This document shows positions 13,357 through 60,369 of a stretch of DNA of 64,000 nucleotides, piece after piece (positions within the stretch are counted from its first letter, which is position 1; every line of letters begins with the position of its first letter). The notes below the pieces were generated by a model, which was not told where the DNA came from, searched no databases, and saw only the letters and a list, made by a program, of their open reading frames with translations. The stretch lies in NCBI GenBank assembly GCA_000092065.1, contig CP000584.1; one strand, written 5' to 3'. Source of the DNA: Ostreococcus lucimarinus (lineage: Eukaryota). The position numbers were made by a program, and so were the translations under genes.

Positions 13357-13543
13357 CTGTCGCGTTCAATTCGACGTCGTCAGTCCACGCCATTCGCGTC
13401 TTCACTCGCGCGTCTCCATTTTTAATCTCCGATCGACCGTTCGCGCGCGTCCCCGAGTCTCCTCCGTCGCGTCTCCTCCGTCGCCCCTCGCGATTCAATT
13501 CTCCCGCGCTCGCCCCCAATCCATCGCCTCGCTCGCCACGCAC

Positions 13544-13615
13544 GCTCCAATTGCACGCGTAGATCATCCACGGCGCCTCATAGGTGTATATTTCCGCCCT
13601 CTTCTCCGCGTTCAT
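13544..13615 (-). CDS. DCAF7: DCAF7/WDR68 exon 1 (MNAEKRAEIYTYEAPWMIYACNWS) joined across a 187-nt intron (13357-13543)
   Basis: ATG is at 13613-13615 (minus). EIYTYEAPWMIYACNWS matches the DCAF7 N-terminus EIYKYEAPWTVYAMNWS. The donor AGC|GTGCGT is phase 0, and the junction restores ...NWS|[11 protein letters not shown], matching human [14 protein letters not shown]. Confidence 0.75.
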
Positions 13616-13901
13616 CGTTCGCGCGCGCCTTCCTCGTCTTTCGTCGCGCGCCTTCACCGCCCGTCGGGTCCCGCGTTCGCGCTCGACGCCTTCGCGTTCG
13701 CGTCCGACGCCTTCGCGTCGCTCGAAGCGCGCGCCTCGCTCGCGTCGACCGCGTCGAGCGCGTCGACCGCGTCGAGCGCGTTCGCGTCGTCGTGTGCCGC
13801 GCGTCGTTCGCGCCGTCGTCGAATCCATCCATCGAATCCATCGATCGATGCGTCCGTCGATCGCGCGCGGCGCCGTTCGCGGCGGCGCACCCGCGCGCGC
13901 G

Positions 13902-14633
13902 ATGGACGCCGGCGCGACGTCGCGCGCGCGCACGATGCTCGACGCGTGCGAACGCCTCGGAACGTTCGCCGGCGTCGCGGGCGACGCGCGCGCGGACGGG
14001 ACGGCGCGCGACGGACGGGACGTCGTCGCGGACGTCGTCATCCTCGGCGCGGACCGCGCCGAGGGGACGAGCCCGCGGGAGACGGCGACGATGTTCGCGA
14101 GCGTGCGCGCGCGGGCGAGAGCGTGCGGCGTGGACACGGTGCGAGTGCTGTGCGTCGGGCCGAACGTGCGCGTGGGCGAGGCGTACGAGCTGGGGAGGGA
14201 GTACGACGCGGGCGAGAGGACGCGGGACGAGGCGGCGCTGCGGGTGGAGTTTCGAGCGGGATTGTATCACGAGGAAACGGTCGAGAGAACGGCGGACGTG
14301 GCGTTCGCGTTTAACGCGGGAGTGTGGGGGTACGATCCGAGCGATTGGCATCCGACGATCGAACGAGTGGTGGTGCGAGAGCGAACGCCGCTCGTGCTGA
14401 CGTCGTATAGCTTGCGAGAGGCGGAGAGCGACGAGGACGCGATGCGGGCGAGCCTGAGTGGGTTCGAGAACGTGATGTGGGAGTGGGAGGCGGAGAAAAA
14501 CGCGTCGTGCTCGAGCGAGGTGCGAGAGTTGGGATTTGATCGAACCGAGTACATGAAGAAGGACGCGAGCGGCGAGTCGTCGCAGGACGTATTGCGAGAA
14601 AATTTCGCGTGGCAATGCGTCGCCGTGAATTGA
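13902..14633 (+). CDS. conserved hypothetical protein (family not recognised)
   Basis: The first ATG is at 13902. The C-terminal 150 aa has ordinary GC3 coding character and non-repetitive composition (AFAFNAGVWGYDPSDWHPTIERVVVRERTPLVLTSYSLREAE...). The N-terminal third is R/A-rich and uncertain. It is divergent from the DCAF7 start, and stop is TGA at 14631-33. Confidence 0.3.
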   Translation: MDAGATSRARTMLDACERLGTFAGVAGDARADGTARDGRDVVADVVILGADRAEGTSPRETATMFASVRARARACGVDTVRVLCVGPNVRVGEAYELGREYDAGERTRDEAALRVEFRAGLYHEETVERTADVAFAFNAGVWGYDPSDWHPTIERVVVRERTPLVLTSYSLREAESDEDAMRASLSGFENVMWEWEAEKNASCSSEVRELGFDRTEYMKKDASGESSQDVLRENFAWQCVAVN

Positions 14634-20050: not shown

Positions 20051-22798
20051 ATGGATCGCCGGACGTCGCGCGCGAGCGCCGGACCGACGGGTCGCGACGT
20101 CGACGATGCCTCGCTCGAGCGCGCGGGAGAGGAGGACGGTGATGCGGCGCCGTCGAGCCGGTTGTGCGTGAAGAATGTGCCGAAACATTTGAAGGATGAC
20201 AGACTGCGCGAACACTTCGCGGCGATGGGGGAGGTGACGGACGTGAAGATCGTGCGCACGGCGGACGGGACGTCGAGACAGATGGCGTTCGTTGGGTACA
20301 AGACGGAGGCGATGGCGACGAAGGCATTGAAGTACTTTGATAAGACGTTCATCGATACGTCGCGGGTGGAGGTGCAGTACGCGCGGAGCGTGCACAGCGC
20401 GCAGATACCGCGACCGTGGTCGAAGTATAGCGCGGGAAGCTCGGCGAATAAGGAAAAAGAGACGATAAAGAGTGGGCACGGGGGAAAGGGCGAGGCGGAG
20501 GCGGATGGTGAGGGTGAAAGATGGATCGGCGCGCGAGAGGCGAAAAAGTTGGCCAAGCAAAAAGCTCGCGAGCTGCACGATCCGAGGTACAAGGCGGAGC
20601 AGCTCATGAAGGTTGATCCAAAATTTCGCGAGTTCATGGAGCTCATGGTTCCCGCGAAACAAAAGTTTTGGAGCGATGGGTTCTTCGAGGATCAAGACAA
20701 GTTGGAGGGTTATAGGAAGGATTCCGAAAAAGCGCTTCGCGAAGACGGAGACGCCGGGAGCAGCGACGACGAGTATCAAGACTTGGACGAGTCAGAAGAC
20801 GAAGAACAGGAGGAAGAATCGGACAAATCAGGGTCGGAGTCAGACTCGGAGTCTGAGTCTGAAAGCGACAAGGTGGCGAATGACGATAAAGTGTCGGACA
20901 TGGATTACTTCAAATCGAAACAATCGACGTGGAAAGACGACGAGGACGATAGCGAGGACTCCGATTCTGATGACTCCGAATCTTCTTCCGACGACGAGCA
21001 AAGCCAAAGCCCTGATGCGTCTGATGATGAAGAGAAGAGTTCTGATTCAGACGCCTCCGATGATCCAGACACACTAGAGAAGGAAGAGACAGACGCCGCG
21101 GAACCAGAATCGAAAGACGTCAACGCGGCCGACATGGAGGCGTTGTCCGAAACCGGTCGAATTTTCGTGCGCAATTTGCCTTATACTGCGACGGAAGAAG
21201 AAGTGGCGGAGTTGTTCGAACAGTTTGGCAAGCTCACCGCGGTTCACATTCTCGTCGATCGCAGTACAAAGCGTAGCAAAGGTTTGGCGTACGTGACTTT
21301 TGTCATACCCGAGGATGGCGTCAAGGCGATGGAAGCGGTGGACGGCTCAATCTTTCAAGGTCGTTTGATCCACTTACTTCCCGCCAAACGCGCGCCACAG
21401 CTTGATTCTACGATGGGTGGCGTTGGACGCACAGGTGAAGGCGAAGACGACAAGAAGGATTCCTTCAAGACGGAACGCGACGCCGAGCGCAAAGCCGACG
21501 CGGGCAACACAAAGGCGTGGAACTCTTTATTCATGCGTCAAGATACCGTGGCCGCGGCGATCGCGGCACACTACGGCGTCACGAAAGCCGAACTCCTCGA
21601 CTCTGGTGCGGATGATCTCGCAGTGCGCATGGCGCTCGGCGAAGCGCACGTCATCGCGACGACGAAGCAACAACTCGGCGAAGCTGGCATTGACGCGGAA
21701 TCGCTCGAGCAGTCTGCGGCTTCGAGTGGGGCGAAAAGTGCGAGCCGAGTCAAGCGCAGTAATTGCGTGTTATTGTTGAAAAACTTACCCTACGAAGCCG
21801 AGGAGGATGAGCTTAGAGAACTCTGCGAAAAGTTTGGCGGCGTGGCGAGATTCATCTTACCCGATACGCACACCATCGCCGTCGTGGAGTTCCTTGAAGC
21901 CTCCGAAGCGCGCCGCGCGTTCACGGGTTTGGCGTACAAACGCTATCGACATGTACCACTTTATTTAGAATGGGCGCCCGAGAATATTTTTGCCTCGACT
22001 TCAAAGGTCGACATCAAGGGCGCCAAGGCGCTAGCCGTCGCCGACGCGTCGAGCGATTTAGCCAAGGAGGCGCGAGACAAGACAAAGGCGAAAGTGGACG
22101 CGGCGAATGATCTCGCCGGTAAAACCGTCAGCGACGACGCGGTGTCGATATTCGTCAAAGGTCTGGATTTCGGTACCACCGACAAAAAATTGCGTTCGCA
22201 TTTCGCCGCGGCGGCGCAACGCGTCTCTGGCCAAATCATCGCCGCTCGCGTCGTCACCCATCGCGGGCCCGGAGGCAAGATGCTCAGTCGAGGCTTTGGC
22301 TTTGTAGAGTTTGACACTCCCATGGTCGCAAAGTCGGTTTTGACCGCTCTTCAAGGATCGTCGCTCGACGGTAAGACGCTCAAGCTGGAGTTGAGCTCGC
22401 AAGGAGGCGGCGAACGCGATGACGACAAGGCTGGGAAAGTTCCGAAGGGCTTTAGCGCGACGAAAATTGTCGTCAGAAACGTCGCATTTGAAGCGACGAA
22501 GCGCGACATTCAGAAGCTGTTCAACCCGTTCGGACAACTCAAGCAAGTCCGATTGCCGAAAAAGTTCGACGGCGCGCACCGAGGTTTCGCATTCGTCGAG
22601 TTCAACACGCGACGAGAGACGCAAGCCGCCATGGATGCGCTCCGAGGCACGCACTTGTACGGCAGACACATCATCATAGAACGCGCCGCGGAAGAGGAAG
22701 ACGGAGAGGAAGACATAGAGGCGATTCGAAAGAAAACGACGTCGAGATTCGAAGCGAACGAGAACGCGTCCAAGCGCACGCGCTTGAACTCCTACTAG
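20051..22798 (+). CDS. MRD1: Mrd1/RBM19-type multi-RRM nucleolar RNA-binding protein (5-6 RRMs, acidic serine-rich linker)
   Basis: RRM1 is RLCVKNVPKHLKDDRLREHFAAMGEVTDVKIV...MAFVGY, similar to the RBM19 N-terminus. RRM2 is RIFVRNLPYTATEEEVAELF...KGLAYVTF. C-terminal RRMs are KIVVRNVAFEATKRDIQKLF...GFAFVEF and LLLKNLPYEAEEDELRELC. A D/E/S-rich spacer spans 20760-21100. Start is the ATG at 20051 (MDRRTS...); an in-frame ATG at 19970 is the alternative. Stop is TAG at 22796-98. Confidence 0.8.
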   Translation: MDRRTSRASAGPTGRDVDDASLERAGEEDGDAAPSSRLCVKNVPKHLKDDRLREHFAAMGEVTDVKIVRTADGTSRQMAFVGYKTEAMATKALKYFDKTFIDTSRVEVQYARSVHSAQIPRPWSKYSAGSSANKEKETIKSGHGGKGEAEADGEGERWIGAREAKKLAKQKARELHDPRYKAEQLMKVDPKFREFMELMVPAKQKFWSDGFFEDQDKLEGYRKDSEKALREDGDAGSSDDEYQDLDESEDEEQEEESDKSGSESDSESESESDKVANDDKVSDMDYFKSKQSTWKDDEDDSEDSDSDDSESSSDDEQSQSPDASDDEEKSSDSDASDDPDTLEKEETDAAEPESKDVNAADMEALSETGRIFVRNLPYTATEEEVAELFEQFGKLTAVHILVDRSTKRSKGLAYVTFVIPEDGVKAMEAVDGSIFQGRLIHLLPAKRAPQLDSTMGGVGRTGEGEDDKKDSFKTERDAERKADAGNTKAWNSLFMRQDTVAAAIAAHYGVTKAELLDSGADDLAVRMALGEAHVIATTKQQLGEAGIDAESLEQSAASSGAKSASRVKRSNCVLLLKNLPYEAEEDELRELCEKFGGVARFILPDTHTIAVVEFLEASEARRAFTGLAYKRYRHVPLYLEWAPENIFASTSKVDIKGAKALAVADASSDLAKEARDKTKAKVDAANDLAGKTVSDDAVSIFVKGLDFGTTDKKLRSHFAAAAQRVSGQIIAARVVTHRGPGGKMLSRGFGFVEFDTPMVAKSVLTALQGSSLDGKTLKLELSSQGGGERDDDKAGKVPKGFSATKIVVRNVAFEATKRDIQKLFNPFGQLKQVRLPKKFDGAHRGFAFVEFNTRRETQAAMDALRGTHLYGRHIIIERAAEEEDGEEDIEAIRKKTTSRFEANENASKRTRLNSY

Positions 22799-22818
22799 AA
22801 ATTTAATCACAATAGCCC

Positions 22819-23496
22819 TCACGCGAGCCGCTTTGAAAGAATGAGATAGTGCGAGCTCCCTTCGTCCACGCTCTCGTCCGGGCTGAGTTCGTCCACGACG
22901 TAGCCCATCTTCTTCGTGTAGAACTCGTACGCCCCGACGTTCGTCTTGAGCACGGTCAACACCACGGCCTCCATCCCCAGTTTCTTCGAAACCGTCTCCA
23001 CCGTTCGCACGAGCGTCTCCCCGAGCGCCCGTCGCTGGTGCGCCGCTTCGCACTGCAACTCGTACACGTACCCCACCGGATTATCCACATCCTCGTCCTC
23101 CCTCTCGAATCTAAAGTGCACAAACGCCACCGGACGTCCACTCTCGCGCGATCGCACCAGCACAAACCTCGCCGCGCCGTTATTCAACTCCCTCCGCTTC
23201 TCCGTCGCGTCCCATCCCCACGTGCGCTCGTACGCCGCGCGCATGTTCGCCTCCGTCACCTCGAAGCACCAATCCCGATCGCTCGTCGACATCTCCCGCG
23301 CCGACGCGTAGAATTCAAACCCATACCCCTCCCGCGTCGCCCTCGCGCGCGAATCCCTCGCGCTCCGCACCGCCAGGCACGCGTCCGCGGCGCGCGGCAC
23401 CATCCGCTCGAGCGTCCCCGTCGCCGTCTCGCGCGCGTTCGCGCGTCGCAGGATCGTCGCCGTCGCCGTCGCCGTCCCGTCGCCGTCGCGGTCCAT
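22819..23496 (-). CDS. GNAT-family N-acetyltransferase, NAA40/NatD-like
   Basis: The acetyl-CoA binding region is YVYELQCEAAHQRRALGETLV (Q/R-x-x-G-x-G/A) followed by VLTVLKTNVGAYEFYTKKMGYVVDELSP. Size and layout resemble NAA40. The first ATG is at 23494-96 (MDRDGDG...). Stop is TGA at 22819-21, only 20 bp from the Mrd1 stop. Confidence 0.55.
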   Translation of the reverse strand: MDRDGDGTATATATILRRANARETATGTLERMVPRAADACLAVRSARDSRARATREGYGFEFYASAREMSTSDRDWCFEVTEANMRAAYERTWGWDATEKRRELNNGAARFVLVRSRESGRPVAFVHFRFEREDEDVDNPVGYVYELQCEAAHQRRALGETLVRTVETVSKKLGMEAVVLTVLKTNVGAYEFYTKKMGYVVDELSPDESVDEGSSHYLILSKRLA

Positions 23497-23883
23497 CGTC
23501 ACCGTCCCGTCACCGTCCCGTCACCGTCCCGCGTCGCCGTCTCGCGCGTCGCACGCGTCGCGTCGAAATCAAATCAAATCAAAACCACGTCGCGGCGTCG
23601 CGCGCGCGCGTCGACGACGCGAACCGGCGCTGGGCGTGATTCGACGGTTCGCGACCCATCGCGAGGGGGTCCCCGCGCGCCCCGCCCGAGATTTACCCCT
23701 CGCTCGAAACCCGAAAACGCGCGCGCGCGGGTCGTACGATCACCACCGAATCGCCCATCACCGCGAACGCGCGCGCGCGATCGAATCCGATCCGCGCGCG
23801 CGTCGTATCTTTCGCCGCGCGCGGCGTCGCGCGCGTCGCGCGCGCCGCACTTCGCGTCGCGACGCGCACGGGACTCGCGCACG

Positions 23884-23901
23884 ATGAACGCGCTCGCTCA
23901 G
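23884..23901 (+). CDS. psaF: putative psaF exon 1 (MNALAQ) joined to 24396 across a 494-nt GC-rich intron; hypothesis
   Basis: The psaF reading frame has no ATG between its upstream in-frame stop (TAG 24369-71) and the mature protein. ATG 23884 is followed after 6 codons by CAG|GTACGC, phase 0. An acceptor CGCAG| at 24395 is preceded 28 nt upstream by ACTGAC, the window-wide branch signature. The join gives MNALAQ|[31 protein letters not shown]..., a plausible transit peptide. The donor deviates from the GTGCGT/GTGAGT donors seen elsewhere. Confidence 0.3.
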
Positions 23902-24395
23902 GTACGCGTCGGTTCGCGCGTCGTCGGCGCGCGCGACGCGACGCGACGACGCGCGCGCGCGACGCGAGGGACGGCGCGCGCGCGATCGGCGTTCGAAACG
24001 ATCGGTCGATCGCGCGCTCGTCGCGTCGTCGCGTCGCGCGCGCGATGGACGCGCGGCGGCGATCGGGCGTCGGGTGGGGGCCGACGCGCGATCGCGCGGG
24101 CCGCGCGCGGCGCGGCGCGGACGCGCGCGAGACGCGGCGTCGATCGAGGGCGGACGCGCGCGATCGGTGGATCGCCACCGCGGGGCGTCGAGCGGGACGA
24201 CGGAGGCGGCGCGGGCGCGGGCGCGAGGCGGATTCGGGCGGCGCGCGCGACGCGAGAGGGCGCGGACGCGGTGGCGCGCGAGGTCGGGAGGGCGGGGCGC
24301 GCGGGCGAAAGGGCGCGCGCGACGACGAAGGCGAGCGCGGGGACGAGGGCGAGGCGCGAAGACTGACCTAGAACGGATTCGACGCGTCGACGCAG

Positions 24396-25076
24396 GTTCA
24401 ACTCTCCAGCAAGGTGACCGTTTCTGGTCTCAAGCAAACCGCGCGCGTGAACGCGCGCACGGTGAAGACCGCCGCGCACTGCTCCGCCGCCGATGTGACG
24501 CGCAAGGCGGCGTCCTTGGCCGTCGCCGCCGCCGTCGCGGCGACGCCGTTGGTCGTCGTCGAAGAAGCCTTCGCGCGCGACGTGCAACCGTACGCCGGTT
24601 TGACCCCGTGCAAGACGTCCAAGGCGTTCGCAAAGCGTCAAAAGACCGAAATTAAGGCGCTCCAAAAGCGTCTCAAGAAGTACGACCCGGAATCCGCCCC
24701 GGCGCTCGCCCTCAACGCGACGATCGAAAAGACGAAGACGCGATTCGCCAACTACGGCGAAGCCGGTCTCCTCTGCGGTAAGGATGGTCTCCCGCACTTG
24801 ATTGTTGATGGTAACCTCGAGCACCTTGGCGAGTTCGCCGTGCCGGGCTTGGGTTTCCTCTACGTGGCGGGCTGGATTGGCTACGCGGGCCGCTCCTACG
24901 TTCAAATGAACAAGGAAACCGCCGCCAAGCCGACGCAAGGTGAAATCATCATCGATGTCCCGAAGGCGCTCGGCTTGATGTTCCAAGCGGGTGCGTGGCC
25001 GCTCCTCGCCGGTCTTGAGCTCAAGAACGGTACGCTCACGGCGCCGGAGAGCGAGATCACCGTCTCCCCGAGATAA
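24396..25076 (+). CDS. psaF: photosystem I reaction centre subunit III (PsaF) precursor, nuclear-encoded with a bipartite stroma + lumen transit peptide
   Basis: The mature part is [78 protein letters not shown]...[19 protein letters not shown]...[12 protein letters not shown], collinear with plant and algal PsaF. It is preceded by an AFA| lumenal cleavage site, a hydrophobic h-region and an S/T/R/K-rich stromal part. 24396 is the acceptor-defined start of this exon; the ORF-track start at 24414 is a GTG. Stop is TAA at 25074-76. Confidence 0.85.
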
Positions 25077-25309
25077 GCGACATAGTAGAAACTCTCGAGC
25101 GCTTGCTGTACGATCACGAGGACCTTCCTTTATTAGTCAGAAGAAACGCGATTTGTGATTGCCAAACATAATGCTTCTTTAATCGTACACTTGTGCTTTA
25201 CATCGACGGAACGCTCGTTCCTCTGCGCCGCTATTTGTTCTTCTACGTTGCTACCGCTACTCGCTTGCGGAGGACTTCCGAGCGCCGACGCTAAGATTGT
25301 TCGCGTTTC

Positions 25310-26128
25310 CTACGCGCCGTTCGGACTCGCAGGCATGGCGAGTCGCGTCACCACGAGATCATCGCTGGTCGTCGATTCTTCCACCAAATACTCGATGAGC
25401 ATGATTGCGAAGAACGTCAGGCAAATTGCGATTCCGACGCCGACGCGCAGAAACTTTGACTGCGGTTGAACGCCGACGTTCGCACCCACCTCGGCGGCTT
25501 CCTCCGCCATGGATGCGAGCGCGGAATCAATCTGTAACAGAACCTCCTCGCGACGTTTCTTTCCAACCTCGCGTCGCTCGTCGTCACCGTTCCCCGCCGC
25601 CGCCCCTCCTCTTTTGGGCTGCGGAAACCGACGCTCCAACTCCGCGAGCGCGAGACGATTCCTCGTCTCGGCCTCGGCCTCGACCTCGGCCATCGCCCCG
25701 ACGCGTCGCGAAGACACTTCGACGACCCCCATCCCCGGTTGTTTCCCCAGTCTCCCCATCGTTCGCCGCTCGCGCCGATTTTCCTCCGCGGCCTCCGCCC
25801 ACGCGTCGAGTTCTCGCAGCGCCTCCCTCGCCTTCGTCTCCTTCGCGTCGCTCGCGCTCCCGAGCTGCAGATCCCACACCGCGCGTTCGCCCAATTCCAT
25901 CGCCCCCTGCGCGGCGTCCCGCACCGCGTCCAGCGCCTCGCGCGAGATTTTCGCCGCGCTCGCCCCCGCGAGCGCTCGGCTCGAGCGTTCGACCGCGTCG
26001 AGCGCGCTCGTGAGCTCATCCACGCTCGACGCCCTCGCGCGCACCGCCTCGCGAAGCGCCGCGCATCGCTCGTACACCTCGCTCACCGCGTCGCCGAACG
26101 GCGACGGCGGCGCGCGCGCGGGCGTCAT
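25310..26128 (-). CDS. tail-anchored coiled-coil protein, SNARE-like (family not resolved)
   Basis: A heptad-rich cytosolic region precedes a SNARE-motif-like stretch EEVLLQIDSALASMAEEAAEVGANVGVQPQSKFLR and a single C-terminal TM (VGVGIAICLTFFAIMLIEYLV). The first ATG is at 26126-28. Stop is TAG at 25310-12, convergent with psaF. Confidence 0.4.
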   Translation of the reverse strand: MTPARAPPSPFGDAVSEVYERCAALREAVRARASSVDELTSALDAVERSSRALAGASAAKISREALDAVRDAAQGAMELGERAVWDLQLGSASDAKETKAREALRELDAWAEAAEENRRERRTMGRLGKQPGMGVVEVSSRRVGAMAEVEAEAETRNRLALAELERRFPQPKRGGAAAGNGDDERREVGKKRREEVLLQIDSALASMAEEAAEVGANVGVQPQSKFLRVGVGIAICLTFFAIMLIEYLVEESTTSDDLVVTRLAMPASPNGA

Positions 26129-26382
26129 CGTGTGGCGCGCCCGCGGTCGCACTCGAAGACGCGACGCCGAGATGTCGACGAAAAAGGTGCGCGAGCGCGC
26201 GCGACGCGCACCGCGGTCGACGCGTCGCGACGCGCGCGCGCGCGGCGACGCGGCGACGCGCGCGCGATCGATGACGCGCGATTGATTACGCCGGCCCGTT
26301 TGCGATTCGATTTGGTGTTGACGGATTGAATTCGAATTTGAACGACGACCGGCGCGTGACTGACGATCGTCGACGCGTGTCG

Positions 26383-26432
26383 ATGCGCGCGCAGCGTACT
26401 CTGCTCAAGGTGATCATCCTTGGGGACTCGGG
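26383..26432 (+). CDS. RAB7: Rab7 GTPase exon 1 (MRAQRTLLKVIILGDSG, phase 2) joined across a 94-nt intron (26433-26526)
   Basis: ATG is at 26383. The donor GG|GTGAGT splits the Gly codon of the P-loop GDSGVGKT. ACTGAC lies 25 nt before the acceptor TGTAG| at 26525-26. Confidence 0.8.
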
Positions 26433-26526
26433 GTGAGTAACGCGCGCACGGCGAGGCGAAGGCGCTCGAACGAATGAACGCTCGCTCGGGACGCGACTGA
26501 CGCGACGACGATCGTCCGCGATGTAG

Positions 26527-27100
26527 GGTTGGGAAGACGTCGTTGATGGCGCAATACGTAAATAATAAGTTCTCCAAGCAGTACAAGGCGACGATCGGGG
26601 CGGATTTCATGACGAAGGAAATCGTCATCGACGACACGGTGGTGACGTTGCAAATTTGGGATACGGCTGGACAGGAGCGATTTCAGTCGCTCGGCGTGTC
26701 GTTTTATCGCGGTGCGGATTGCGTGATGTGCGTGTACGACGTCAACTCGGCGAAATCGTTCGAGTCGCTCGAGAACTGGCGAAACGAGTTTCTCGTGCAG
26801 GCGTCGCCGAGCGACCCAGAGAAATTTCCCGTCGTCGTCGTGGGGAATAAAATCGACGTAGAGGACGGCAAGGACAGCAAGAGGGTGATCAGCGAGAAGA
26901 AGGCAAAATCGTGGTGCACGTCAAAGGGTGGTTTGATGCACTTCGAGTGCAGCGCGAAGGAAGATATCAACGTCGACGCCGCTTTTGAAGCCGTCGCGAG
27001 GTTCGCCGTGCAAAACGAAGACGCCGAGGAGGACGTGTACTTGCCGGACACCGTTAGCATCGACACGCGCGGCGCCGCACCCTCCAGCGGGTGCTGCTGA
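26527..27100 (+). CDS. RAB7: Rab7 GTPase exon 2
   Basis: (G)[31 protein letters not shown]...[22 protein letters not shown]...GNKID...FECSAKE...AAPSSGCC* is collinear with Rab7. It has P-loop, switch, NKxD and SAK motifs and a C-terminal CC prenylation site. The joined protein is 207 aa, and stop is TGA at 27098-27100. Confidence 0.88.
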
Positions 27101-27277
27101 CGACTTTTACGACTTGTCACGCGCGCACGCAACCATTCAACACCTTTCGTCGTTCCCATTCGCCAACTCGCTCGTCTCGCGTTCCGCGTCCCGCTCCGTG
27201 GATAAAGCGCGCGGCTGAGATTACTCATCATCCTCCATCGTCTGTCTCCACGCCACACCTCGCCGCGCGCGCGTCCG

Positions 27278-28237
27278 ATGGCCATGCTCGCCACGTCCCG
27301 CGCGTACGCTCTCGCGCACGCTCGCCCTCGCCTCGCCTCGCCGTACCGTCATCGCGCGTCGTCGTCGCACCGCGCGGTCGCGGTCGAATCGACGTCGACG
27401 ACGGCGAGCGATCTCGGCGCGCTCGGTGACGGACGATTCTCCAAGCTCCTCGGCGCGCTGGACGTCGCGGAATTGACGTCCGTGATCGCAGGAAGCGACG
27501 AAGCGCTGACGGTGTTCGCGCCGACGGACGAGGCGTTCGAGCGGTGCGCGCGGGACAGGGCGCTGGCGTTCGAGGAACTCGCCGAACGCGAAAACTTGGA
27601 CGAGATATTGAAGTATCACGTCGTGAGCGGCGCGGTGAAGTCGAGCGATTTGAAGAGTGGACAAGTGAAGACGCTGAATGGACGCTCTGTGAAGGTTGAC
27701 GTCGCTGGGGGTGAGGTGAAGGTCGACGGCGTCAAGGTGACGGAGGCGGATAAGGCGGCGTTCGGGGGCAACGTCGTCGTGCACGTCGTGGACGAGGTTG
27801 TTTTTCCGGCGTTTTCGATCAACGCCAAAGTGCAAACGCCGCAAGAAATTCTTGCGTTCGAGGGATGGGCGCCGGAGGTGATTAACGGACGCGTCGCCAT
27901 GCTTGGGTTCGTGCTGGCGCTGACGGGCGAAATCGCCACGGGGGAGTCGTTCACGACGCAGGCGGCGAACAACTTTGGCGAGCTCACGCGCACGATGTTC
28001 GTGTGGAGCTTGGCGTCTCTTTTCCCGGCGTTCAGTTCGAACGAGGGGTACGAGGCGAACCCGTTCAAGATGGCTGACAGTAAGGAATGGGAATTTGTTT
28101 TCCGCGGTTGCCCGCCGTGGCTCGCGGTGAAGGATGTCTTTTCGCCCGAGGTTGAACAGCTGAACGGCCGCGCCGCCATGATTGGCTGCGCTTCGATGAT
28201 CGTTCTTGAAACGCTCCTGGGACACGCGCTCTTCTAG
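27278..28237 (+). CDS. plastid-targeted FAS1 (fasciclin) domain fused to a two-helix LHC/ELIP-like chlorophyll-binding module
   Basis: It has an S/R/A-rich N-terminal presequence. A FAS1 domain follows (LTVFAPTDEAFER...ILKYHVVSG...NGRSVKVD...NVVVHVVDEVVFP). Then come two CAB-type helices carrying the Chl-ligand motif E-x-x-NGR-x-AM: WAPEVINGRVAMLGFVLALTGE and SPEVEQLNGRAAMIGCASMIVLE. ATG is at 27278 and stop TAG at 28235-37. Confidence 0.7.
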   Translation: MAMLATSRAYALAHARPRLASPYRHRASSSHRAVAVESTSTTASDLGALGDGRFSKLLGALDVAELTSVIAGSDEALTVFAPTDEAFERCARDRALAFEELAERENLDEILKYHVVSGAVKSSDLKSGQVKTLNGRSVKVDVAGGEVKVDGVKVTEADKAAFGGNVVVHVVDEVVFPAFSINAKVQTPQEILAFEGWAPEVINGRVAMLGFVLALTGEIATGESFTTQAANNFGELTRTMFVWSLASLFPAFSSNEGYEANPFKMADSKEWEFVFRGCPPWLAVKDVFSPEVEQLNGRAAMIGCASMIVLETLLGHALF

Positions 28238-41875: not shown

Positions 41876-42139
41876 GTGCGTCGACGACGACCGGCGCGCG
41901 ACGCCACGGGACGCGCGATGGCACCGCGATCGCGACGCGCGCTCGAGGATTGGCGCGCCGTGCGCGCGCGATCGACCGCTCGAAGCGCGGTGATGGGTGA
42001 TGGAATATGCGTGTTATCGAATCGCGTCGACGCGCGCGATGGGGACGCGTCGGCGCGCGCGCGACGGGGTGAAACGTGGATGGAGTTGTGAAAGACCTAA
42101 GACGGACGACTGACGATGGGACTCGACGCCGCGACGCAG

Positions 42140-42223: not shown

Positions 42224-42409
42224 GTGCGTGTTTGCGATGTGTTCGACGGCGCTGACGCTCGATCGTCCTCGACGGGAGTAGGGCTTTGGACGCGCGAGGC
42301 GCGCGCGCGCGGAGGGACGTGCGTTCGACGCGAGGGAAGATTCGAACGCCCCTGTGCGTGTTTGAATCAGTGACTGACGATGTTATAAACTTTTTCGTGC
42401 GATGTGTAG

Positions 42410-45880: not shown

Positions 45881-46991
45881 GTGTCCGAGACCGAGAAACC
45901 TGAGCAACGATTTCGTGCGTTGCAGGATTTTCCTGCGCGTTCGAGCGTCGCGCGACGCGCGGCGGGCGATCGATCGTCAGTCGCGATTCCGTCGGTCCCC
46001 CGATCGCGTCGCGCGCGCGTCTGCGCGCGCGCCGTCTCGCTCGCGCGCGTCGCTCGCACCTGCGCTGATCCACCACGCGCGGTTTCGCTCGGTGCGATAC
46101 CATGGCGTCGCGCGCGCGTCGCTCGAGGGCGAGCGCGAGGCGATCAGTGCGGCGAAACAGGGCACTGTCTCGTGCCCAGGTTCAGCGCGGATTCGGCGAC
46201 GCGCGCGGGGTCGACCGAGGCTCGGCGCGCGCGAGCGCGGGCGCGAAACGAACGGTGGAGCGCGGCGTGGAGTGATGCGTGATTAAACGTTCGAACGCGC
46301 GCGACGCGCGCGATGGCGCTCGAGGAGGCGGCGCGGCGTCGACGACGCGTCGGACGCGAACGCGGACGACGCCGAGGCGTTCGCCGGCGCGAGCGCTCGA
46401 CCCTCGGCGAGGGCGCTCTCCAACGCCGCGCGCGAGAAACGACCGTCGCGGCCGTCGACGTCGCGCACGGTGCGCAGGGCGTTTCGCACCCCCGCGCGCG
46501 TGATCTCGGGTCGTCGCATGCGGGCGTGCTCGAACAGACCGATCCACGCCGCGGCGAGGAGCAAGAGCGTCAACGCGACGACGCGCTTTTGAGACCTTCG
46601 ACTCTGAAGCAGTAAAACCCCGAGCGGCATGACGACGCAGATCAGAAACACGACCACGAGATCGAACCAAAACGTCTCCGCGTACGTCGTCGGCATGGCG
46701 TCATGGTGTGTCCGGCGAACCGCGCGCGCCGCGTCACACAATAGTCGTCGCGTTCGGCTCAACAACGACCGCGCGCCGCGCGCGCGGTCGCGGCGCCACC
46801 GTCGCGCGCGTCGACCGAGACGCTCGCGCGCGCCGACGATAAAAATTTCCTTCGCGCGCGCGCGACGCGCTTTCGCGGCCGACGCGCGGCGCGCGCGTTT
46901 CAGACCATCCGCTCGCTCCGAACCAAACTTTGAAGTCGAAACGTCGACCAGCTGTCTGTCCGTCTGTCGCGTCAAATCGCGTCGCCGCGCG

Positions 46992-49900
46992 ATGTCCGCG
47001 CGATGGCGCGTGACGTGGACGAGGGAGCGACACAAAAAGAAACCTCGGAAGCGCGACGGTCGACTCGATGTCGACGCCGCGTCGCGCAGCGCGACGCTTT
47101 ATGACGAGAAAGAGAATGACGACGGGACGATTTCGTTTGAAGTCGTCGCGCGGGAGAAATTGCCGCCGAAGACGTGGGAAACGCTGGAGAGCGGCGTCGA
47201 GATCGCGCTGGGGGGGGTGGGGGTGTACCTGGACGATCTCGTCGACCGCGGGGGGGGCGGAGGGGCGGAGTCGGTGGAGGCGACGAAGGAGGCGACGAAG
47301 AAGGCGGGCGCGGAGCGAGCGAAGCGACATCGACACGTGAATCCGGCGTTTCAGAAGAAGTTCGTGCCGCCGATGTTGAAGCGAGCGAAAACGCGCGCGC
47401 CGATGGTGGTGAATGATGACGTGGACGATGATGCGCGCGATGGGGGGGAGAACGAACCGAAATCGGATTTGGCAAAGCTTTTGCAAATGTTCGACGGCGA
47501 CGTGGACGCGGCGATCGATATGGTCGATCGAAACGGTGGTGAGGCGAAAAAACCGATTGCGTTGAACGTGAAGGCAAAACCAGTGGTTCATGTGCCGTTT
47601 GCGACGAGACCGGCGCCACAGAGTGCGCCGGAGGCGACGACAAGTGCGCCGGCGCGGAGAGTCTCGGCGCTGGGCGCGGCGGCTGCGCCGGCGCAAATGT
47701 CGACGGATGTGTGCGTGACGTTTCCCTCGTATAATTACGCAGGCTCGGAGTTCCCCAGGGCACAGACTTTTGCGACGGTTCGTGAATATCAGGCGTATTT
47801 CGTGTCGGCCATATGTGAAAATCTGATGCTTCGCCTGCGCGACGTATCGTCGACTATGCACAAGCTGCGCACCGATGGCGCGCAGTCGGCACAGAAGCCA
47901 GATTTGCTCGCGAAAATTCTTTGGCATAGATACAAACTGCGCTATTTCACGCAGTGCGAGATTAGCTCGCGAAAATGGACAGACAAAGTAGACAACACGG
48001 AGAAGACGTGCGTGCGATTGATGGTGAAAGATTTCAAATCCATCAAGGGCCCGAAGCCGTACGCGAAGGGAGATTTCTGGATCGTGAGCACCGAGCCGTG
48101 GTTCGAAGTGAAGCCATTACAGGAGATCGGTGATCGTCATCGCGCGCCTTGGTTGGGCGTGGTCGAGTGTAAGTGGCATGGTATGGACAACGAGGGTAGG
48201 ATGGAGGTGCAATTGTTGGGACCACGACCTCCTCGGTTGCGCGACAATGCCACGATACACGTTTACGCCATGCACACGTCACTGAACGCTTTTTCGGAAA
48301 CGGATGAGCTCGAAAATATTTTGAGTCTTAGCGCTGGGCGCCCGTCACCGCTCATCGATAGCATACTAGGCAAACCACCGCCGAAGGAACTTGAAGAGGA
48401 AGCAGAGCTGTATTTGAAGGACGCAGACATTGGTGTCGCACCGTTACAAAGAAGCTTTAAACTCAACGACGACCAGGCTCGCGCGGTGTCAGGAGCGCTC
48501 GCAAGCGCGACTTCAGCTTCGCATCTACCCGTGCGTCTCATTCACGGGCCTTTTGGAAGCGGTAAGACGCACACGATTGCGGCGTTTGTCACCAAAGCCG
48601 CCGAGCTTTTGAAGTCTTCGAATGGGAGAATAATGATCGCTGCGCACACCAACGTCGCTGTCGATCGGGTGCTTCAGTCTCTTCTCGAAGCCGGTTTCAC
48701 TGATTTCATTCGTGTAGGAAGTGTTCGAAAGATTGATCCTGTGATTCTTCCGTATTCTCTTCACGTCAAGACTGGCAAAGGACCGTCGCAAGCGAAAGAG
48801 CTCGAAGCCATGCTCAAGGAAACGACTTCGGTGCGAAAAAGAGCCATTTTGCAGAAAGAAATCGAGACTCTGTCGTCAGGTAAAGTTGGGATGCGGAAAG
48901 CGTTGCTGAAAAAGTGTAGCGTCGTTGGCGTCACGTGTTACTCGTCATCTCACGAAGATCTCAAGAACATGGAGTTCTCGGTGGTCGTTCTTGATGAGTG
49001 CTCTCAGATGACAGAACCGAGCAGTTTGCTTCCGGTGGTACAGTCACGGTGCAAAACGCTCGTCGCTGTTGGCGACCCTTTGCAGTTGTCGCCAGTCGTC
49101 GCCGATGTTCCGGAAAGCAATCGATCGAAAGCAAACGTGACCCGCAACCCGCTCAAACGAACGCTCTTTTCTCGCCTGAGCGACGCTGGGCATTCCAAAG
49201 TGACGTTGCGCACGCAGTATCGATTGCATCCGGCACTTAGTGCCGTCCCAAACAAGTGTTTCTATGACGGTGTCTTAATCGACGGCATCGGTGCGAGCGA
49301 TCGGACGAGTTTGATTCGACTGACGACGGGCGGTGTTTTGTCGCCCATCGTCTGGTGGGACACGAGTGGATTTGACACAAAGGAGGGGCAATCGAAACTC
49401 AACGTTGAAGAAGCGACGCGCGTGAGTGGTGTCGTGCGATGTTTGCTCGATAACGACGTTCCGGCTGGTAGGATCGGCGTGATTGCGTTTTATGCAGCGC
49501 AGGCGTCGTGCGTGTCAAACAAGCTTGCGCACGCCCCTCACGACGTCGCTCGCGAGATGACCAACGTCAACGATGACGAGGATTTTGAATCCTTTCTCCC
49601 ATCCGACGTGCAAGTGAGTACGGTGGATGCGTTTCAAGGCCAAGAGAAAGATGTCATCATCATCACATTGTGTGGTGCACCGTTGAGTACCTTCACGAAT
49701 GCGGAGCGTCTGAATGTTGCGCTCACGCGTGCAAAGCGACATCTCATCGTCGTCGGAGCCGCAGCAGTGGCGCAAAAGTCCAACGTTTCGGCGTGGGTGG
49801 AAACTTTGAAACGTGCGAGATCCACACCAAATGGATACATTCCCTTGAGTTATGAAACCAACGCTGTGTTGCAGAAATGGAGTCCAGCCGTGAAGGAGAG

Positions 49901-57790: not shown

Positions 57791-59875
57791 CTACGCGCGG
57801 GCGCACTCGCGAACGAAGGAGTCGAGCACGTCCTCGTACTGGGAGAGAAAGTGGTCGGCGATCATGGTGCGAGATAGGATGATCTTGCGGTAGACGTCTA
57901 AATCGACGTCGAAGAAGAGGGCGTGGCGGGACTCGCGGCGGGCTTCGTCGACGGCTTCGTCGAGGCCGGATTTGTAGACAAAGTGAAGGATTCGGCCGGC
58001 GGGGTAGAGTAAGACGGTGCCTCGCTTGGCGATGTCTTGGTCGGCGCGGGCGTCGCTTGACGCGGATTTGACGCGTTTGACGACGGGCTCGCGCTCGGAG
58101 TCGTCGCACGACGCGGTGTCGTCCATGCGCGGCGGCGGTAAGTCTGCGCCGTAGTAATCCGCCGTCATGAGCGCCTCCTCGTCTCCCAACAATTCGGCTG
58201 CTTTCATGACGGAGATGTCTTCTTGCATTGCCAGCACCTCTTGCGCCGCGTTGGCCTCAGCGCGATAAATCTTTTTCATATCGTCAGCGGTGAGCGGTTT
58301 CTGGAAGTCTTCGTCGAGCGCGATTCGAGCGCTCTCGATGTACTCCTGGAAATCGCGCTCCTCCTGCGACTTGGGCGAGGCGGCGGCGGCGTGCGCGTGC
58401 GCGAGATGGGCGTCGTGACAAATATCGGTCGCGAGCACGGTGGCAGAGATGGTGTCGCCTACTTGCTGATTCGTCTTGCTGAACTCAGTCTTGCTCTCGC
58501 CCGTCGGCTCTGCTCGCTCGAGCGTTTTCTTCTTCCTCGGTCGCGGGGGGACGATGCCGGCGATGAACGCCCCCGAGAGACTGGCTAATTTTGAACTCGT
58601 GTTACTCACGCGTTTGCCGATCAGCAGGCTTTGTCTGTACAGCGAACTCGACTCGACTAACTTATCGTGCCTTGTCTTCAATCCTTTCAGCGCGCGCAAC
58701 CACTGTGGGTACTTTTGTGGGCCGTAGTTTTGTTTTCCCAGAGCCGCGGCGGCGGCGGCGAAACGCGACGGCGTCGGTCCTCGAGCGCATTCCATCGCCG
58801 CGGTACTCTCTCTCCATTTATCCAACAATCTTTGCTCGAGCGCCGTACTCACGACTTCGCGCTGTAACTCGCTCACTTTGCTAAAACTAACCATCGGGAC
58901 TAAATCGGCGTTGTTCACGCACGTCGTTACGAAAGATCGACACGACTCGGCGAGCTCGCGACTCAGCGTCGACGGGCACGCGAAGGTGAAACAGTGCAAG
59001 CCCACTCGCTTGAACCTCGGGTCTTGTCGTAACATTTCGGTGAGCAACACCGCGACACCACCACCCAAGGAGTGCCCGACGATCTTCAGCTCGTACCCGG
59101 GGTGCGCCGCGAGCGAAGACAGCAAGTCGTCTTTAATCTTTCGCTCGAGAAATCTCGCCGTGGTGAGGAATCCGCTGTGAGCGTACCCGACGCGCAACGT
59201 CGCCTCCTCGTCATCCGACGTCGACACCATCGTGTGATGCGCGCACACCGAGCCAGTTAAATTTGTTATCATATCCTTCGCGCTGTGCGTGCCTCGAATG
59301 ACAAAAACCAACCGCTTTTCATCCTCGTCCCGAAACAACACGTACGCCGGCCGCATCATTCGCGGCGCCAAATCGCTCAACAAAATCGCCTCCTGACCCA
59401 CCCCTCCCTGCGCCGCCACCGTCTTCAAATCCGGCGCCCTGCGCAACGATTTCGAATACGTCAGCGCCATCTTTATCTCCCTCAAACTCTTCTCCCACGC
59501 CTCTTTCGCGTTCGAATCGTCCGCCGTCCTCGCCGTCCTGTTCAAACGCGCGCGCGTCCCGCGTCTCGCCACCTCTCTCGCGATCGCCCCCCCCATGTCT
59601 CGCTGCGACAGCATCCGCAGCGCCAGCACGTGATCCAACCGCCATATGTTCAACCGCGCCAGCGCTTCGCTCCAGCTCAACCGCACGACGCGCGCGAGTC
59701 GCGTCGCGCTCTCGCCCCACGTCGTCGGCGGTGGTGGCGCCGCGTCGAAAAGCAGCGACGACGCGCGCGCCGCGTCGTCGTCGCGCGCGCCGCTCGCGCG
59801 CGCGCGCACGAACGCGCAGAGCGCGCGCTGCACGACCGCGCGGTCGACGCCGCGCGCGACCCGCGCGGGGGGCAT
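57791..59875 (-). CDS. class-3 (fungal-type) lipase domain protein, sn-1 DAG-lipase-like
   Basis: The nucleophile elbow IVGHSLGGGVAVLL has a preceding YVLFRDEDEKRLVFVIRGTHSAKDMITNL (lipase_3 lid/oxyanion region) and a downstream LHCFTFACP. Real ATG is at 59873-75 and stop TAG at 57791-93. Its stop is 60 bp upstream of the USP gene start on the same strand. Confidence 0.7.
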   Translation of the reverse strand: MPPARVARGVDRAVVQRALCAFVRARASGARDDDAARASSLLFDAAPPPPTTWGESATRLARVVRLSWSEALARLNIWRLDHVLALRMLSQRDMGGAIAREVARRGTRARLNRTARTADDSNAKEAWEKSLREIKMALTYSKSLRRAPDLKTVAAQGGVGQEAILLSDLAPRMMRPAYVLFRDEDEKRLVFVIRGTHSAKDMITNLTGSVCAHHTMVSTSDDEEATLRVGYAHSGFLTTARFLERKIKDDLLSSLAAHPGYELKIVGHSLGGGVAVLLTEMLRQDPRFKRVGLHCFTFACPSTLSRELAESCRSFVTTCVNNADLVPMVSFSKVSELQREVVSTALEQRLLDKWRESTAAMECARGPTPSRFAAAAAALGKQNYGPQKYPQWLRALKGLKTRHDKLVESSSLYRQSLLIGKRVSNTSSKLASLSGAFIAGIVPPRPRKKKTLERAEPTGESKTEFSKTNQQVGDTISATVLATDICHDAHLAHAHAAAASPKSQEERDFQEYIESARIALDEDFQKPLTADDMKKIYRAEANAAQEVLAMQEDISVMKAAELLGDEEALMTADYYGADLPPPRMDDTASCDDSEREPVVKRVKSASSDARADQDIAKRGTVLLYPAGRILHFVYKSGLDEAVDEARRESRHALFFDVDLDVYRKIILSRTMIADHFLSQYEDVLDSFVRECARA

Positions 59876-60369
59876 CGCGCGCGCGTGTGCCGTCGCGGCG
59901 GTTCGCGGCGGTCGCGTTCGATCGGCATCCGCGTCGTCGTCGTCGTCGGACGCGGGAAAAAATAGGAGGCCCGTCAGTGGAGATGAACATCAAACGGTCT
60001 ACGCGACTGCGTGCGCAGAAAATCGATCCGGCGCGCGCGGGCGCGGTGGCGTCGGTGTCGTTACGGGCTTCGCCCGGGCGGGCTGGGCAGAGAAAGTCAA
60101 CAACGGCGACGGCGTCGGCGCGAGGCGCGCCCGTAATCGCGTCGAAGATCGAGAAACGAAATCGTCGACGACGAAATTTCTCGTCTCGTCATCAAGGATA
60201 AATGCACTCGTCGTCTGCAGGACGCCGACTACGTTTTTTTTTCCGCGGCGACCTCAACCGGCGTTTCGTGGCTGTCGTTTTCTCGCGTCGTCTCGACGCC
60301 TCGGACGCGCGTGACGTCACTTTACGACGCCGACGCGACGACGCACCGACGACGACGACAACGAAAACG

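Follow-up and report, generated by a model that had tools for sequence, protein, structure and literature searches.

A six-codon first exon and a CpG-rich phase-0 intron at the start of nuclear psaF in Ostreococcus lucimarinus

How does a gene begin when its main reading frame offers no start codon ahead of the mature protein? This is the question raised by psaF, encoding subunit III of photosystem I, in the 64-kb window of Ostreococcus lucimarinus DNA analysed here (by 'window' we mean the whole stretch under study), where the plus-strand PsaF frame is closed on its 5' side by a TAG at 24369-71, and where the frame from 24372 to 25076 has no ATG in front of the mature protein, its first methionine being an internal one ('YVQMNK'). 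The original prediction had described the frame in just these terms, and its coordinates hold on checking; it went on to propose that translation starts in a six-codon exon several hundred nucleotides upstream. The plus strand between 23503 and 24395 contains only two ATGs, at 23884 and 24045, and none at all between 23503 and 23883, so that 23884 is the first ATG encountered after the upstream gene and hence the first AUG for a transcript starting anywhere in the intergenic region. Taking all the evidence described below together, we are close to certain that this is a nuclear psaF gene initiated at the AUG at 23884, with a first exon encoding MNALAQ, a U2-type phase-0 intron at 23902-24395 and, as its product, the annotated pre-PsaF.

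The coding part of exon 1 (23884-23901, plus strand; ATG AAC GCG CTC GCT CAG, translated as MNALAQ) supplies in six codons the N-terminus of the transit peptide and reads ATGAACGCGCTCGCTCAG/GTACGC across its boundary with the donor at 23902. The coding sequence of exon 2 (24396-25076, plus strand) runs from VQLSSK to ITVSPR, ends with a TAA stop at 25074-76 and encodes the remaining presequence, to about AFA66, followed by mature PsaF. Splicing the two segments together yields a protein of 232 amino acids which, by exact-sequence look-up, is residue for residue that of XP_001417212.1 (ABO95505.1, UniRef100_A4RVV3; UniProt A4RVV3), deposited under the name psaF, PSI-F, subunit III, photosystem I polypeptide, from O. 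lucimarinus CCE9901. Compared at the protein level, there is no detectable difference from the annotated gene, and this identity means that the deposited psaF requires the same MNALAQ exon 1, 494-nt intron and exon 2; the short first exon and its intron would, on this protein match, be already known from GenBank. The family assignment comes from a match to PF02507 (PSI_PsaF) with an E-value of 1.2e-65 and 221 bits against a cut-off of 27, in which residues 57-224 align with positions 10-172 of the 172-position profile. Among structures, the PSI subunit III chain of O. tauri (PDB 7YCA_F) matches with 444 bits, residues 1-232 of the query aligning to residues 1-231 of the chain, and more than 60 further PSI F chains match at E<1e-30. 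The O. tauri protein is alike in aligning from end to end and in having a six-residue N-terminal segment that ends in Q, and differs in carrying MHAHAQ for MNALAQ and in being one residue shorter, at 231 amino acids; its N-terminus is MHAHAQAQLTSK, with MHAHAQ/AQLTSK at the corresponding junction.

The most direct evidence for the junction itself is an 838-nt contig, L013 (ENA ERZ4842641 NODE_15361), which encodes the exact 232-residue PsaF without interruption and reads cgcgcacgggactcgcgcacgATGAACGCGCTCGCTCAG/GTTCAACTCTCCAGCAAGGTGACC at the point where the two exons meet. In BLASTN alignments, positions 4-60 of the contig fall on window positions 23847-23903 and positions 45-837 on 24382-25174, and resolving these overlapping matches at the GT-AG boundaries joins 23901 to 24396, so that the aligned parts are 23847-23901 and 24396-25174 and precisely the 494-nt GT...AG interval is missing. 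Because the missing piece is exactly such an interval, L013 would most simply be a cDNA; its sample type is unstated and could be either RNA-seq of a cultured strain or a metatranscriptome. The exon at 23884-23901, the boundary at 24396 and the 494-nt intron with a GTACGC donor had each been proposed from the genomic letters, and each now has RNA-type evidence, in that L013 carries the exon, crosses the proposed junction between 23901 and 24396 and shows a gap whose ends agree with the intron termini. The evidence here is one contig with a coverage of about 6x; its first ten or so bases are slightly unlike the window, and its leading GGG, which does not align to the window, may be non-templated. 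The alignment places the psaF transcript start at or upstream of 23847 and defines minimal untranslated regions on the plus strand of 23847-23883 at the 5' end (contig positions 4-40, with two mismatches near the contig end) and 25077-25174 at the 3' end, where the alignment reaches its limit at 25174. Among JGI metagenome contigs, two scans for the exon-exon junction, using a degenerate and an exact pattern respectively, found no instance; this collection apparently lacks relevant transcript assemblies, because even the junction of the type carried by L001, a cDNA-like contig described below, was not found there.

The interval that L013 lacks has the features of a spliceosomal intron. It is bounded by GT at 23902-03 and AG at 24394-95, the acceptor context being cgcAG/GTTCAA, and its 3' splice site (CAG, 24393-24395) is marked both by the L013 junction and by the onset, between 24390 and 24408, of similarity to all relatives. 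The 5' splice site, GTACGCG (23902-23908), fits five of the seven positions of the published consensus GTGCGTG, and a branch-point motif, GACTGACc, lies at 24361-24368, with the ACTGAC core at 24362-67 and the branch adenosine (24366) 28 nt from the A of the terminal AG. Both signals are on the plus strand.

As a local standard we used four introns elsewhere in the window whose boundaries were checked by protein continuity, since a combined finder of donor, branch point and acceptor proved too noisy when run across the whole window. Two of them (26187-26394 and 26433-26526) belong to a Rab7-like gene, which reads MSTKK/RTLLKVIILGDSG/VGKTSLM... across its junctions, and two (41876-42139 and 42224-42409) to RPL8, with ...AKHRQQ/DYAERHGY...APLAK/MTFRH... 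The Pfam Ras match crosses both Rab7 junctions; the RPL8 junctions rest on the reading of the spliced translation, the Ribosomal_L2_C match (residues 98-221) lying downstream of both. The control donors are GTGCGCG, GTGAGTA, GTGCGTC and GTGCGTG, to be set beside the GTACGCG of psaF, which falls inside the range of donors seen here without being a full match to the consensus; the branch motif of the controls is GACTGACG. The distance from the start of CTGAC to the 3' end of the intron is 33 nt in psaF against 30-36 nt in the controls, so the branch-to-acceptor geometry invoked in the original prediction stands. The hexamer ACTGAC by itself is not enriched, occurring 21 times in the window against 24.6 expected. 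We rejected ACTGAC alone as splice evidence for this reason, and the information is carried by the fixed distance to the AG together with the extended GACTGACG, which is modestly enriched (10 occurrences, 4.5 expected). The psaF intron is also longer than the controls (494 nt against 94-264 nt).

These features place it close to the class described by Irimia & Roy (2008; PMC2483917) from EST-confirmed O. lucimarinus introns outside chromosome 2, for which the donor consensus is GTGCGTG, and in which ACTGAC is present in 87% and GACTGACG in 66.5%. The psaF intron shares with that class its GT-AG termini, an ACTGAC at a constrained distance, a GTRCGY-type donor and a GC-rich body, and departs from it in having GTACGCG rather than GTGCGTG as donor and GACTGACC rather than GACTGACG at the branch point. 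It is a canonical U2-type GT-AG intron.

Comparison with other Mamiellales, which had been suggested as a check on the model, places the intron identically in Micromonas, Ostreococcus and Bathycoccus. A phase-0 intron close to the start is shared, at the corresponding site, by four further Ostreococcus lineages, Bathycoccus and a Micromonas-like contig. In Ostreococcus the exon/donor boundaries and intron lengths are MNALAQ/GTGCGCG and 722 nt (L014), MNTLAQ/GTGCGTG and 841 nt (L007), MNAVAQ/GTACGTG and 553 nt (L010) and MNACVK/GTACGTC and 408 nt (L016); in Bathycoccus prasinos (L018) the boundary is MFSLVQT/GTACGAT, the intron is 532 nt long and AT-rich, and the annotated product has 227 amino acids. 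Two cDNA-like JGI contigs, L001 and L002, read MNTLAQ/AQLTSK and have lost the 841-nt intron that is present in genomic L007. The Micromonas-like Tara contig L019 has MAAMMSINAVAP/GTGCGT...GACTGACC...CAG/AKLSSK..., and its gene (1783-2590) shows two further points: its first exon has 12 codons (MAAMMSINAVAP), and a second intron lies 20 codons on, after ...SVVAK, which is absent in Ostreococcus and Bathycoccus. In a protein alignment the Ostreococcus junction, Q/V(A)QL(S/T)SK, and the Micromonas one, P/AKLSSK, share a column, which makes the intron position common to Mamiellales, and the Ostreococcus versions of exon 1 (MNALAQ, MNTLAQ, MNAVAQ, MNACVK and MHAHAQ) align with the ...NAVAP of Micromonas-type PsaF. 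We infer from this that the start-proximal intron is an ancient one in the Mamiellales, and that the Ostreococcus first exon has simply been trimmed down to six codons. Nucleotide alignments of the window with its relatives show similarity only in exon 2, from the acceptor onwards, and in an island around ACGATGAAC...CAGGTRCG; within the intron body there is no sequence conservation with these relatives beyond the roughly 70 nt next to the donor, which are themselves of low complexity.

Two other ways of starting the protein need to be weighed against this model, and we regard both as highly improbable. One dispenses with splicing altogether, an unspliced mRNA being translated from a non-AUG codon downstream of 24372, such as the GTG at 24414. 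It draws apparent strength from hundreds of metagenome gene calls that begin at this very codon (P0121, of 220 amino acids and from 489 contigs, and P0001-P0045, of 219-220 amino acids), all of them produced automatically, with the bacterial code, on genomic contigs. The spliced L013 includes the upstream ATG exon, and the sequence, phase and position of that micro-exon are kept across three genera while the intron around it is not; green algal nuclear genes, moreover, initiate at AUG. The other alternative takes the start to be the ATG at 24045, the nearest one upstream, from which a phase-0 GT eight codons on, at 24069, would be spliced to the acceptor at 24396. This route would need a donor, GTCGGGT, that fits three of the seven consensus positions, in a region that is unconserved in relatives; the segment is entirely missing from L013, and the transcript's first AUG lies elsewhere. 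The reading frame that opens there (MDARRRSG..., 24045-24371, plus strand, 108 amino acids) gives no Pfam match and lies wholly inside the excised intron; long open frames are to be expected in sequence of 80% GC, and we regard it as spurious and not a gene. That it terminates before psaF is as first noted, whereas the accompanying statement that it has no phase-compatible donor overlooked the poor phase-0 GT at 24069.

The metagenome calls deserve a comment of their own. The false N-termini among them (P0001-P0045, P0121, P0161, P0167 and P0033) include GTG starts equivalent to 24414, intronic starts and read-through of the 3' end of the intron ('...TDWLTDLTLIAIERTQ'). We considered whether the 'MCDAMQ...' proteins, P0161 and P0167, might represent a second spliced form, and rejected this, since on their genomic contigs they start at ATGs within the intron and continue across the acceptor. 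As a separate observation, exon 2 itself opens with an ATG in one Ostreococcus lineage (MNLTSK...) and has an ATG at its third codon in another (VNMTSK), as seen in L010 (4001), L003 (~160) and L006 (~88); in such lineages a nearly full presequence could still come from mRNA that is unspliced or has an alternative start.

The protein encoded across the junction would be a precursor destined for the thylakoid lumen. The N-terminal part, residues 1 to about 66, would form a bipartite presequence: as read from the sequence, it consists of a hydroxylated and basic stromal-targeting part, an RK pair, a hydrophobic core and AFA. In its first 41 or so positions the earliest acidic residue is D39, and a candidate cleavage site follows EEAFA, ahead of mature PsaF. 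Mature PsaF chains in the PDB start about two residues before query position 73. No twin-arginine motif occurs in the presequence, which is consistent with Sec-type lumenal targeting. A bipartite transit peptide had been anticipated from the outset, and its expected components (stromal part, basic residues, hydrophobic core and AXA motif) can all be recognized in the predicted precursor.

The intron is set in a CpG-rich region. Its GC content is 0.80, against 0.60-0.69 in the four control introns, making it the highest among them, and it has a CpG observed/expected ratio of 1.93, with 1.93-2.30 in the controls and 1.56 for the window as a whole; it contains 0.294 CpG per nt, so that CpG dinucleotides account for some 59% of its bases, and is G-skewed and built from degenerate CG-rich short tandem repeats. 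With a threshold of 0.22 CpG per nt in 300-nt windows, the 64 kb contain 16 CpG-dense segments, one about every 4 kb and roughly one per gene boundary, of which none is longer or more extreme than the psaF promoter and intron (23201-24450), where GC peaks at 0.84 and CpG at 0.32. Others reach a GC of 0.79 with 0.297 CpG per nt, or 0.78 with 0.287. The hyper-CpG region to which attention had been drawn is real in its composition, and the oddity that this implied is not, given 16 such segments in one window. The CpG richness of psaF lies at the far end of a widespread class, and we infer that it reflects the non-coding composition of the genome. The islands also include 13501-14250, 25851-26500, 45901-47100 and 59501-60150, and those that were checked span promoters and introns. 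CG methylation and nucleosome linkers in Ostreococcus are the subject of Huff & Zilberman (2014), as cited in PMC5728721.

A scan of 23300-25300 against Rfam gave sub-threshold noise only, and thus no known RNA, snoRNAs included, in the intron, and the 64-kb window contains no near full-length copies of the introner-element type known from Micromonas; matches of the intron to other parts of the window are CG-rich, of low complexity and at most 107 nt long. At both divergent promoters of this neighbourhood (22900-24400 and 25500-26400) the GC skew changes sign, from about -0.3 to -0.4 upstream to between +0.14 and +0.31 downstream, such that on either side G exceeds C on the non-template strand along the direction of transcription.

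Around psaF the gene arrangement is itself of interest. Divergently upstream, on the minus strand, lies the open reading frame of a GNAT acetyltransferase (22819-23502), and 2 kb downstream, on the plus strand, the Rab7-like GTPase gene (26172-27100). The order RRM protein, GNAT acetyltransferase (minus), psaF (plus), unknown (minus), Rab7 (plus), fasciclin/LHC-like is kept from Ostreococcus lineages to Bathycoccus (L007, L010, L014 and L018 compared with 22000-27300 of the window), and in the Micromonas-like L019 at least the GNAT-psaF pair is kept. The Rab7-like gene resembles psaF in having a micro first exon, of five codons (MSTKK, 26172-26186), followed by a CpG-rich intron of the form GTGCGC...GACTGACG...CAG, and differs in that its first intron is of 208 nt and that a second one, of 94 nt, follows after an exon of 38 nt. 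Both of its introns carry GACTGACG 30-35 nt ahead of the acceptor (26172-26527). In the O. lucimarinus genome it is normal for first exons to be short and for introns to be CpG-rich with GTRCGY and ACTGAC signals; the start of psaF is typical of this genome, and in this respect the result is an ordinary one.

Two short motifs were noticed in the upstream region. The 64 kb contain a single copy of CGTATCTTT(C/T), at 23804-23812, 80 nt upstream of the psaF ATG, and the same 8-9-mer is found upstream of psaF in L007 (2994), L010 (3215) and L016 (149), at -241, -215 and -142, in promoters that otherwise cannot be aligned; an exact match to CGTATCTTT is absent from L014. Possibly this is a cis-element conserved in the divergent promoter of GNAT and psaF. 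Immediately 5' of the psaF start codon, ACATCGCGAC (in the window ACTTCGCGTCGCGAC, 23848-23866) is conserved in five Ostreococcus lineages and lies where the transcript-like contigs L013 and L001 have their 5' ends, and this site may be an initiator region.

In the resulting sequence of events, psaF is transcribed from a CpG-rich divergent promoter shared with the upstream minus-strand GNAT acetyltransferase gene, giving an mRNA whose 5' end lies at or before about 23847 and whose first AUG is that at 23884. After the MNALAQ codons, the canonical U2-type phase-0 intron 23902-24395 (GTACGCG / GACTGAC / CAG) is excised and exon 1 joined to VQLSSK... at 24396, splicing thereby completing the open reading frame for the 232-residue pre-PsaF.

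Whether the intron does more than interrupt the frame is a matter on which we can be only tentative. It might have been kept for a regulatory role, through intron-mediated enhancement or an effect on chromatin or R-loops close to the promoter, instead of persisting as neutral DNA, a view that we find appreciably less probable than its opposite. Its position is conserved across Mamiellales, its length is 408-841 nt in every lineage against a species median of 111 nt in O. lucimarinus (PMC2483917, Table 2), highly expressed O. lucimarinus genes have an excess of introns (PMC2367439), and at the promoter itself the GC skew becomes positive along the direction of transcription. The interior, on the other hand, is unconserved past the donor-proximal 70 nt or so, themselves of low complexity, and its composition follows the genome background, being AT-rich in Bathycoccus.

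For the interpretation of picoalgal genomes the locus has several uses. A gene model rebuilt from raw sequence alone, down to an exon of six codons, fits both the deposited protein and the transcript evidence, which gives it value as quality control, and the metagenome data carry the practical warning that prokaryote-style calls on marine metagenomes systematically mis-start PsaF on hundreds of contigs. It is, in addition, a clean example of the constrained splice signals of Ostreococcus (GTRCGY, ACTGAC and a fixed distance from branch point to acceptor), and it illustrates that highly expressed genes of this genus retain 5' introns, where an ancient intron, unusually long for very compact genomes, might conceivably, if on present showing rather doubtfully, have been retained since it boosts or gates the expression of a highly expressed photosynthesis gene.
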